Part shown: one piece after another, positions 42,903 to 45,374 of the stretch | How positions within the stretch are numbered: position 1 is the first letter of the stretch | How the letters are laid out: every line of letters starts with the position of its first letter | Notes under the pieces: generated by a model | Told to the model about the DNA's origin: nothing | What the model saw: only the letters and a program-made list of their open reading frames with translations | Database searches by the model: none | From: a virus | Lineage: Duplodnaviria > Heunggongvirae > Uroviricota > Caudoviricetes | DNA: 47,013 bases | IMG/VR virus record: IMGVR_UViG_2541047907_000003 | Direction: 5' to 3' (one strand) | Position numbers and translations under genes: made by a program

Positions 42903-45374
42903 ATGAGTAAAGTCTTTATTTGCGCCGCTATTCCTGACGAACTGGCAACAAGGGAAGAAGGCGCTGTGGCTGTAGCCACAGCCATTGAAGCTGGCGACGA
43001 ACGCCGTGCTCGAGCAAAATTTCACTGGCAGTTCCTGGAACATTATCCGGCTGCTCAGGACTGCGCTTATAAATTTATTGTCTGCGAGGATAAACCTGGC
43101 ATACCCCGCCCTGCCCTCGATTCATGGGATGCTGAATATATGCAGGAAAACCGCTGGGATGAGGAGTCTGCTTCTTTTGTCCCGGTTGAGACTGAATCCG
43201 ATCCGATGAACGTCACTTTTGACAAGCTGGCCCCTGAAGTACAGAACGCTGTCATGGTTAAGTTCGACACATGTGAAAACATCACCGTTGATATGGTTAT
43301 TAGCGCACAGGAATTGTTGCAGGAAGACATGGCAACATTCGACGGACATATCGTTGAAGCGTTGATGAAAATGCCAGAAGTTAACGCCATGTATCCGGAG
43401 CTTAAGTTGCACGCCATTGGGTGGGTTAAGCATAAATGTATTCCTGGTGCTAAATGGCCCGAAATTCAGGCAGAGATGCGCATCTGGAAAAAACGTCGCG
43501 AAGGTGAACGCAAGGAAACCGGAAAATACACGTCTGTTGTTGATCTCGCCCGCGCCAGAGCCAATCAACAGTACACTGAAAATTCAACAGGAAAAATCAG
43601 CCCGGTCATTGCTGCCATTCATCGCGAATACAAGCAGACATGGAAAACACTGGATGACGAACTGGCCTACGCTCTCTGGCCTGGTGATGTGGATGCCGGA
43701 AACATTGACGGCAGCATCCATCGCTGGGCAAAAAAAGAAGTTATCGACAACGACCGCGAAGACTGGAAGCGTATCTCGGCATCAATGCGCAAACAGCCTG
43801 ATGCCCTTCGCTACGACCGCCAAACTATTTTTGGCCTTGTCCGTGAGCGTCCGATCGACATTCACAAAGATCCCGTAGCACTGAACAAATATATCTGCGA
43901 ATACCTGACGACAAAGGGCGTGTTTGAGAATGAAGAAACAGGCCTGGGCACTGTTGATGTTCTCCAGTCATCAGAAACACAAACTGATGCAGTGGAAACT
44001 GAGGTATCTGATATCCCAAAAAATGAAACCGCGCCGGAAGCTGAACCATCTGTAGAGCGTGAGGGGCCGTTCTATTTCCTCTTCGCAGATAAGGACGGAG
44101 AAAAATACGGTCGCGCAAACAAACTTTCTGGTCTGGATAAGGCACTGGCTGCTGGCGCCACTGAAATCACAAAAGAAGAATATTTTGCCCGAAAAAATGG
44201 CACATACACGGGCTTACCGCAAAATGTAGATACCGCTGAAGATTCAGAACAACCAGAGCCGATAAAAGTTACCGCTGACGAAGTAAACAAAATTATGCAG
44301 GCAGCCAATATCAGCCAGCCTGACGCCGATAAGTTGCTTGCTGCATCACATGGTGAATTTGTTGAAGGGATTAGTGACCCGAATGATCCGAAATGGGTTA
44401 AGGGGATCCAGACCCGCGATTCTGTGAACCAGAACCAGCATGAATCGGAACGGAACTACCAAAAAGCGGAACAAAACAGCCCAAATGCGTTACAAAACGA
44501 GCCAGAAACGAAACAGCCTGAACCAGTGGCGCAACAGGAAGTGGAAAAAGTCTGCACCGCCTGCGGTCAGACCGGCGGCGGCAACTGCCCTGATTGTGGC
44601 GCGGTGATGGGCGACGCAACATACCAAGAAACATTCGATGAAGAGTATCAGGTTGAAGTTCAGGAAGATGATCCGGAGGAAATGGAAGGCGCTGAACATC
44701 CACACAAGGAGAACACTGGCGGCAATCAGCATCACAATAGCGATAATGAAACTGGCGAGACGGCAGATCACTCAATTAAGGTGAACGGTCATCACGAAAT
44801 CACATCCACCAGCAGGACGTGTGACCATCTAATGATCGACCTTGAAACCATGGGAAAAAATCCTGATGCACCGATCATCTCAATAGGTGCAATATTTTTC
44901 GATCCGCAAACCGGAGATATAGGACCGGAATTTAGTAAGACTATCGATCTGGAAACTGCTGGCGGAGTCATTGATCGGGACACCATTAAATGGTGGCTTA
45001 AGCAATCACGCGAAGCACAATCTGCCATTATGACCGATGAAATCCCGTTAGATGATGCACTGTTACAATTGCGGGAATTTATCGACGAAAACTCCGGTGA
45101 ATTTTTTGTTCAGGTTTGGGGAAATGGAGCCAACTTCGACAACACGATTTTGCGCCGTTCATACGAACGGCAGGGGATCCCCTGCCCGTGGCGTTACTAC
45201 AACGATCGCGATGTACGCACAATCGTTGAGCTGGGGAAAGCCATAGATTTCGATGCCAGAACGGCTATTCCATTCGAAGGTGAGCGCCATAATGCACTTG
45301 ATGACGCCCGTTACCAAGCAAAATACGTTTCAGTTATCTGGCAAAAACTGATCCCGAGTCAGGCTGATTCTTAA
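42903..45374 (+). CDS. large exonuclease with C-terminal DnaQ-like DEDDh 3'-5' exonuclease domain
   Basis: 823-aa ORF; acidic N-terminal two thirds, Cys4 cluster [16 protein letters not shown], C-terminal MIDLETMG...WGNGANFD...HNALDDARY motifs. Confidence 0.75.
   Translation: [823 protein letters not shown]

Follow-up and report, generated by a model that had tools for sequence, protein, structure and literature searches.

The gene at positions 42903..45374 (+) of the virus record IMGVR_UViG_2541047907_000003 (Caudoviricetes), whose whole stretch of 47,013 nucleotides (nt) is here called the window, encodes an exonuclease of 823 amino acids (aa). Judged from its sequence, the C-terminus of this protein is a DEDDh 3'-5' exonuclease of the Rv2179c/T4 DexA type with an active site that looks intact, and its non-nuclease region is homologous to the scaffold of RecE, with which it has a helical domain (N2), a GISDPxDPKW motif and a Cys4 knuckle in common. 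The evidence suggests that the N-terminus of RecE is a reusable adaptor, to which annealases as well as nucleases of either polarity are coupled. The window belongs to the Qin/dicB type of lambdoid prophages. The protein is the intact counterpart of YdfE, the remnant that K-12 retains of this Qin-type prophage protein. As its most likely role, the trimming of DNA 3' ends after prophage induction, by an enzyme expressed from the dicB operon and targeted by its scaffold, is favored with moderate confidence. The analysis followed up a sequence-only reading of the gene, whose observation was confirmed and whose interpretation was partly supported.

Architecture of the 823-residue exonuclease

The open reading frame (ORF) starts with ATG, carries GAGG 10 nt 5' of this codon and includes its stop codon within the range given. 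Two further copies of the gene, with 88% and 92% DNA identity, are each exactly 2469 nt long and free of stops. The ratio of nonsynonymous to synonymous substitution rates (dN/dS), determined pairwise across these three copies, amounts to 0.19-0.26 for the whole gene. The same length, the stop-free copies and this ratio therefore show that the ORF did not arise by chance but is a coding gene under selection, in agreement with the initial description of the frame as intact. Resolved by segment, every folded module of the protein is under purifying selection, and constraint is far weaker in the two acidic linkers. The parts of the gene are as follows.

42903..45374 (+): whole gene for the full-length 823-aa exonuclease, reduced in K-12 to the remnant ydfE; ORF; match to PHROG 2082 'exonuclease' end to end; 821/823 identity to WP_053270473.1, the RefSeq entry for the protein in the genome that matches best
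42903..43187 (+): N1a, small alpha/beta domain, aa 1-95; dN/dS 0.05-0.12
43215..43517 (+): N1b, helical domain, aa 105-205; AlphaFold2 model, PHROG 5943 (covering aa 1-257) and segment map; dN/dS 0.11-0.19 (aa 96-206)
43521..43634 (+): disordered basic loop, aa 207-244; predicted local distance difference test score (pLDDT) <50 at 207-211 and 217-237; net positive charge
43635..43922 (+): N2, helical domain, aa 245-340; AlphaFold2 pLDDT about 90; similar to RecE and inside the match to the RecE NCBIfam model; dN/dS 0.11-0.15 (aa 245-345)
43938..44312 (+): acidic linker 1, aa 346-470, poorly conserved; from composition; dN/dS 0.30-0.42
44337..44399 (+): conserved linear motif, aa 479-499, candidate docking motif; recurs in 24 of 48 long representatives
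44553..44597 (+): CxxC-x7-CxxC putative zinc knuckle, C551/C554/C562/C565; from the motif, which is identical in the RecE of phage Rac-SA53; dN/dS 0.06-0.25 (aa 546-570)
44613..44822 (+): acidic, His-rich linker 2, aa 571-640; from composition; dN/dS 0.58-0.81, the weakest constraint of any segment
44826..45341 (+): DEDDh 3'-5' exonuclease domain (head), aa 642-813; PF16473 match, T4 DexA profile match and invariant catalytic residues; dN/dS 0.11-0.19 (aa 641-823)
44838-44840, 44844-44846, 45138-45140, 45288-45290 and 45303-45305 (+): catalytic codons of D646, E648, D746, H796 and D801, in this order

The assignment of the head is carried by the Pfam family PF16473 (Rv2179c-like 3'-5' exoribonuclease domain), which matches aa 642-813 over profile positions 2-177 of 177 (E=2.5e-67) with 226.4 bits, the gathering score being 27 bits; a weak match to RNase_T comes in addition. 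The motifs IDLET (D646, E648), NGANFD (D746) and H796-x4-D801 are all present as quoted in the sequence-only reading, which had called the region DnaQ-like. Aligned with 5 homologues of 59-84% identity, the protein shows no variation at any of the five DEDDh positions, so that the loss of a catalytic Asp, Glu or His, named by the same reading as what would refute it, was not seen. The sole solved structure reached by sequence is T4 DexA (8KEL/8KEN; E=1e-6 with the single sequence, 1.3e-14 with a profile), and no chain of Rv2179c was retrieved from the PDB by sequence, even with a profile. The DexA alignment covers motifs I and II (D7/E9/D119) and the NDRDVRT block, and it agrees with the DexA numbering and the S87A/D90A mutant of the study that solved the DexA structure (Kang et al. 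2025, NAR, PMC12153337). The catalytic set reported there, D7, D119, H186 and D191, has the same H-x4-D spacing as the 823-aa protein. phmmer sets D718 opposite D90, the tetramer-forming Asp of DexA, in a local alignment (PLDDALL against STIDGIA) that is ambiguous. DexA and its short E. coli homologue EcD belong to the same DEDDh fold family as the head, with motifs I-II and the NDRD(V/I)RT block in register. DexA differs in being a single-domain protein of 227 aa with extra loops, whereas the 823-aa protein has the domain as its last 180 aa.

The N-terminal two thirds had been described as highly acidic. This is accurate for the protein overall, which has a net charge of -65 and an isoelectric point (pI) of 4.65. 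The distribution is uneven, however, since aa 151-250 carry a net positive charge and acidity is highest at aa 351-400 and 551-600. AlphaFold2, run on a 36-sequence alignment, confidently predicts three N-terminal domains, with a mean pLDDT of 83 over aa 1-350: an alpha/beta domain (1-95), a helical domain (105-205) and, after a disordered loop (207-237), a second helical domain (245-340). N1a and N1b together are the portion kept by K-12 YdfE and form an alternative to the PF06630 domain of RecE. N2 is common to RecE and nearly all family members and is found across head types. It is followed by a linker region of about 300 aa that is mostly disordered and acidic, and in which a linear motif and the Cys4 knuckle are common to RecE.

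The statement that no N-terminal domain was recognizable did not hold. The NCBIfam model of RecE (NF007259) matches aa 246-625 to its positions 271-602 (E=6e-83) with 279 bits, as against an equivalog cut-off of 1269 bits. In BLASTP against the 1048-aa RecE of phage Rac-SA53, identity reaches 74% over aa 474-621, a stretch that spans the Cys4 knuckle and an acidic tail lying directly before the nuclease domain in both proteins; a further 27% identity was found over aa 262-336 (RecE aa 295-368). Moreover, proteins 87-99% identical to the one described here carry precomputed Pfam hits PF27430 and PF27432, which cover the first 350 aa. The Cys4 cluster reported initially is present (C551/C554/C562/C565), and judging from its motif it would probably bind metal. 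The linear motif at aa 479-499 comprises 21 residues, LAA.RGE[FY]V[ED]GISDP.DPKW[VI]. Among 48 relatives of at least 450 aa, the pattern G[IVL]SDP.D with the same flanks recurs in 24, within otherwise variable linkers and in proteins with DEDDh, PD-(D/E)XK and Rad52-like heads. This distribution looks like that of a typical protein-docking motif.

A scaffold with interchangeable heads

An exhaustive HMMER search with aa 1-640 retrieved just 243 relatives among 1.84 billion representative proteins. The scaffold family is narrow, and those of its members that were inspected belong to E. coli, Shigella and a phage of Pectobacterium. In a head census of the 48 relatives of at least 450 aa, PF06630 'Exonuc_VIII', which corresponds to the first ~180 residues of RecE and not to its nuclease, occurs in 20. 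The RecE-type PD-(D/E)XK head (DUF3799) was found in 11, the DEDDh head in 7, a RecT domain in 1 and a third head in about 14-17. A segment-by-segment BLAST map revealed a combinatorial mosaic with two alternative N1 types, that of the 823-aa protein and the PF06630 type of RecE, and a common N2. Each N1 type is found with each nuclease head; for example, P0012 combines N1 of the type described here with a PD-(D/E)XK head, and P0009 an N1 of RecE with a DEDDh head. A swap of N1 is also apparent in the variant of vB_EcoS-640R1 (L004:3671-6112, 813 aa), in which the first 245 residues are different and the remainder is the same.

A fourth type of C-terminal head on the same scaffold occurs in P0007 (aa 431-702) and P0145; it belongs to PHROG 26058 and has no Pfam or PDB match by sequence.

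Prevalence was counted in 5426 complete E. coli genomes. The whole gene has a match in 4800 of them (at least 80% coverage in 3537) and the DEDDh head alone in 4223 (4143 at this coverage), as opposed to 271 (188) for the PD-(D/E)XK head of the Rac-SA53 RecE; carrier genomes hold a median of two matching places. It can be proposed, as a tentative conclusion, that one scaffold module is joined interchangeably to four heads (5'-3' PD-(D/E)XK, 3'-5' DEDDh, Rad52-like annealase and RecT). In this view the DEDDh form, which far outnumbers the others in E. coli, would be an uncharacterised effector that is brought to the same target in host or phage. The N-terminal domain of RecE is described as being of unknown function, and full-length RecE improves linear-linear recombination (review PMC11611040). 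If the proposal is true, the scaffold would be a targeting device, and its partner, once found, could explain this effect in linear-linear recombineering and why full-length RecE outperforms its isolated nuclease domain. The 823-aa gene would matter here as the commonest E. coli carrier of a scaffold to which the N-terminus of RecE, a recombineering workhorse, belongs as well.

The protein is not RecE itself. This identity was rejected on account of the 279 bits against the cut-off of 1269, the missing PD-(D/E)XK head and the lack of an adjacent recT. Both proteins have a long N-terminal region with homologous N2, linear motif, Cys4 knuckle and acidic tail. Nevertheless, RecE (exodeoxyribonuclease VIII of Rac) bears a 5'-3' head of the PD-(D/E)XK type instead of a 3'-5' DEDDh head, no DUF3799 hit was obtained in the 823-aa protein whereas the RecE of Rac-SA53 and P0012 have this domain, and PF06630 takes the place of the first 245 aa, which are of the other type here.

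Two further relatives lack the scaffold. Rv2179c of M. tuberculosis, the founder of PF16473, is in the same Pfam family as the head, but it is a stand-alone exoribonuclease according to the Pfam description and papers and is too distant for retrieval from the PDB by sequence. WP_001704145.1 of E. coli Nissle 1917 is 59% identical to the head, has the same catalytic residues and is likewise encoded immediately upstream of xis-int; it differs in comprising 189 aa only. This stand-alone homologue, which is also listed in Table S3 of PMC12153337, sits in the same slot, so the head would apparently be able to work there without the N-terminal 640 aa. The prophage around the Nissle 1917 gene (L006:4991-5560) is an unrelated one, with further genes for RdgC and for a zinc-finger protein of the ClpX type.

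Operon position, proposed role and rival explanations

The genes around the exonuclease are the following.

40348-41063: DicC-like gene and DicA-like repressor, read from ORF translations
42207..42258 (+): DicF small RNA, full-length, upstream of dicB; Rfam RF00039, 72.5 bits, E=5e-15
42433-42621 (+): dicB; Pfam DicB, E=3e-40
42618-42809 (+): ydfD/DUF1482, directly upstream of the exonuclease; Pfam DUF1482, E=8e-25
45447-45698 (+): excisionase, directly downstream of the exonuclease; Pfam DUF1233, E=1.6e-31
45718-47013 (+): tyrosine integrase; ORF list and annotation of the syntenic locus

In gene order, ydfA (DUF1391) stands between the DicA-like repressor and DicF. The exonuclease is the last gene before xis-int in the order dicF-dicB-ydfD-exo-xis-int, which recurs beside different chromosomal neighbors (rspB, ompW and ynfA). 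The counterpart stretch in Rac reads kilR-ydaE-racC-recE-recT-ralR-ydaC-ydaQ-intR. RecE thus also has its place near the end of the early-left operon, a short distance upstream of xis-int, with the difference that recT follows recE in Rac and xis and int follow the 823-aa gene. The RecE-like position postulated for the exonuclease is accordingly borne out by the layout and backed by partial homology. Likewise, the missing partner annealase was corroborated: none is present in the PGAP annotation of the syntenic locus or among ten other ORFs of the window, and tblastn with RecT and a Rad52-like head gave no match, whether in the window or across 80 related loci of IMG/VR. The DEDDh head is present in 78 of these loci and dicB in 76, numbers that come from near-identical and hence not independent sequences.

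It may be added that, at DicF, a domain of an exoribonuclease-named family shares an operon, and the direction of transcription, with a processed small RNA.

As the last gene of the dicB early-left operon, the exonuclease would be made once the prophage repressor is lifted. The dicB operon is repressed by DicA, and a crude consensus scan showed no sigma-70-like site on the + strand just before the exonuclease, which fits co-transcription with dicB; together with the position in the operon, this argues for induction-linked expression. With its DEDDh residues intact, the head would use two-metal-ion catalysis to take nucleotides off free 3'-OH ends. Among characterised relatives T4 DexA is the nearest, which makes DNA the most probable substrate. 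Scaffold, linear motif and knuckle might bring the head to the same partner or DNA structure as the N-terminus of RecE, as suggested by the swapping of heads across relatives. The enzyme would act without a dedicated annealase, which points to a role within the recombination/replication module in trimming or degrading ends rather than to a RecET-type two-component recombinase.

Several points weigh against this role. We infer the substrate (DNA or RNA, single- or double-stranded), the timing of expression and the scaffold partner alike from sequence; the promoter scan was a crude one, and the related loci are close to identical. The 3'-5' polarity gives the wrong overhang for recombination of the annealing type, and 'recombination module' may denote a location only. 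In addition, an antiphage role has been assigned to EcD, the short E. coli homologue of DexA (PMC12153337).

The latter finding is the basis of the alternative that survives best, although it is considered unlikely: an antiphage defence of the kind named HREX, in which the head would spare unmodified DNA and degrade the hydroxymethylcytosine DNA of T-even phages, so that the prophage shields its host from superinfection. Plasmid-borne EcD (HAK9828821.1) digests T4 DNA and not unmodified double-stranded DNA, and it protects against T4 (PMC12153337). Nevertheless, EcD is apparently a short protein encoded by a separate gene, as the primers used for it encode MIDTET... and have no match to the DNA of the 823-aa gene at that site. 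WP_053270473.1, at 821/823 identity, is itself contained in Table S3 of the same study among bacterial DexA homologues. DexA is the closest solved relative, and D782 and D784 fall near the expected place of DexA D169, by a residue-spacing count only, as the D169 region is outside the alignment. However, DexA W152, which like D169 takes part in the recognition of 5-hydroxymethylcytosine, aligns with Y766 at a position that varies between Y, C and W among close relatives. That 65-78% of E. coli genomes retain the gene, frequently as several copies, would suit a defence function, whereas an early-operon gene that has no promoter-like site of its own may be silent in the lysogen. Moreover, no defence-protein family of PADLOC-DB v2 matches at E<=0.01, and a defence role leaves unexplained the RecE-type scaffold, which is common to annealases. 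Finding the partner of the scaffold could also decide between phage DNA metabolism and defence of the host as the purpose of this widespread prophage exonuclease.

A 3'-5' exoribonuclease directed at RNA, which would trim or degrade transcripts, e.g., when RNA of the dicF-dicB operon matures or is turned over, or host RNAs after induction, is less probable again and regarded as doubtful. The domain family is named for the exoribonuclease Rv2179c, and DEDDh enzymes often take both RNA and DNA. Nevertheless, the only solved relative retrieved by sequence is the DNA exonuclease DexA and no Rv2179c chain was found. The weak RNase_T match and the DicF small RNA encoded ~650 nt upstream on the same strand point to RNA as well, but RNase III and RNase E are credited with processing DicF, so that no phage enzyme is needed, and the scaffold is common to proteins of DNA recombination (the RecE nuclease, the Rad52-like head and RecT). 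A decaying or functionless passenger of defective prophages, intact by chance, is highly improbable and already largely refuted by the selection pattern: many copies are truncated (the K-12 truncation by IS2 and numerous partial matches) and insertion sequences (IS) lie within the same prophage, but dN/dS is 0.05-0.19 in every folded module among copies that are 88-92% identical and each exactly 823 codons in length, the catalytic residues are invariant, and the gene is present in deposited phage genomes such as HannyBb, Tritos, mEp460 and Evi.

Annotation, the K-12 remnant and other features of the prophage

The gene was already known, being annotated in thousands of genomes, forming a PHROG family of its own and having a 99.8% identical protein in a published homologue table. 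The records name it 'exonuclease', '3'-5' exonuclease' or '3'-5' exoribonuclease domain-containing protein'. Besides the four phage genomes mentioned, it is found in PhiR42_1 and PPompW phages, and inducible phages are included among the carriers. Several phage records (PV340562.1, OV696610.1 and ON470612.1; L004:3671-6112) mislabel the DEDDh protein as 'exodeoxyribonuclease VIII', though it is without the RecE nuclease domain. The statement that the Qin counterpart of K-12 is disrupted by an IS proved right, as a K-12-type genome keeps nt 1-767 only, after which come a fragment of an IS2 transposase and an integrase that is truncated. In contrast, the value attached to an intact copy as a useful rarity has to be withdrawn in view of the 3537 of 5426 complete genomes with at least 80% coverage and of the inducible phages. 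The intact copy is the norm and no special resource, and the find itself is ordinary.

Elsewhere in the prophage, an IS3-family element (38089-39302, -) with orfA (38976-39302) and orfB (38089-38979) is situated between a YdaT-like gene and a DUF977 gene. At its position, the syntenic locus L001 has an intact gene for 321 aa, and a 202-aa ORF at 39308-39916 (-), which has no Pfam hit, may be a truncated remainder. The prophage carrying this element may be replication-defective. A stretch at 33786-36962 (-) has a low GC content of 35-43%, as compared with about 55-60% in the structural genes, and holds a transposase-like ORF (33786-35126; helix-turn-helix and rve_3) and a 495-aa ORF without Pfam match (35475-36962); it looks like imported cargo. 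Positions 23001-29000, between the terminase and the lysis/Q regions, likewise show 35-39% GC, much below the rest of the prophage, except for one 1-kb stretch at 48%.

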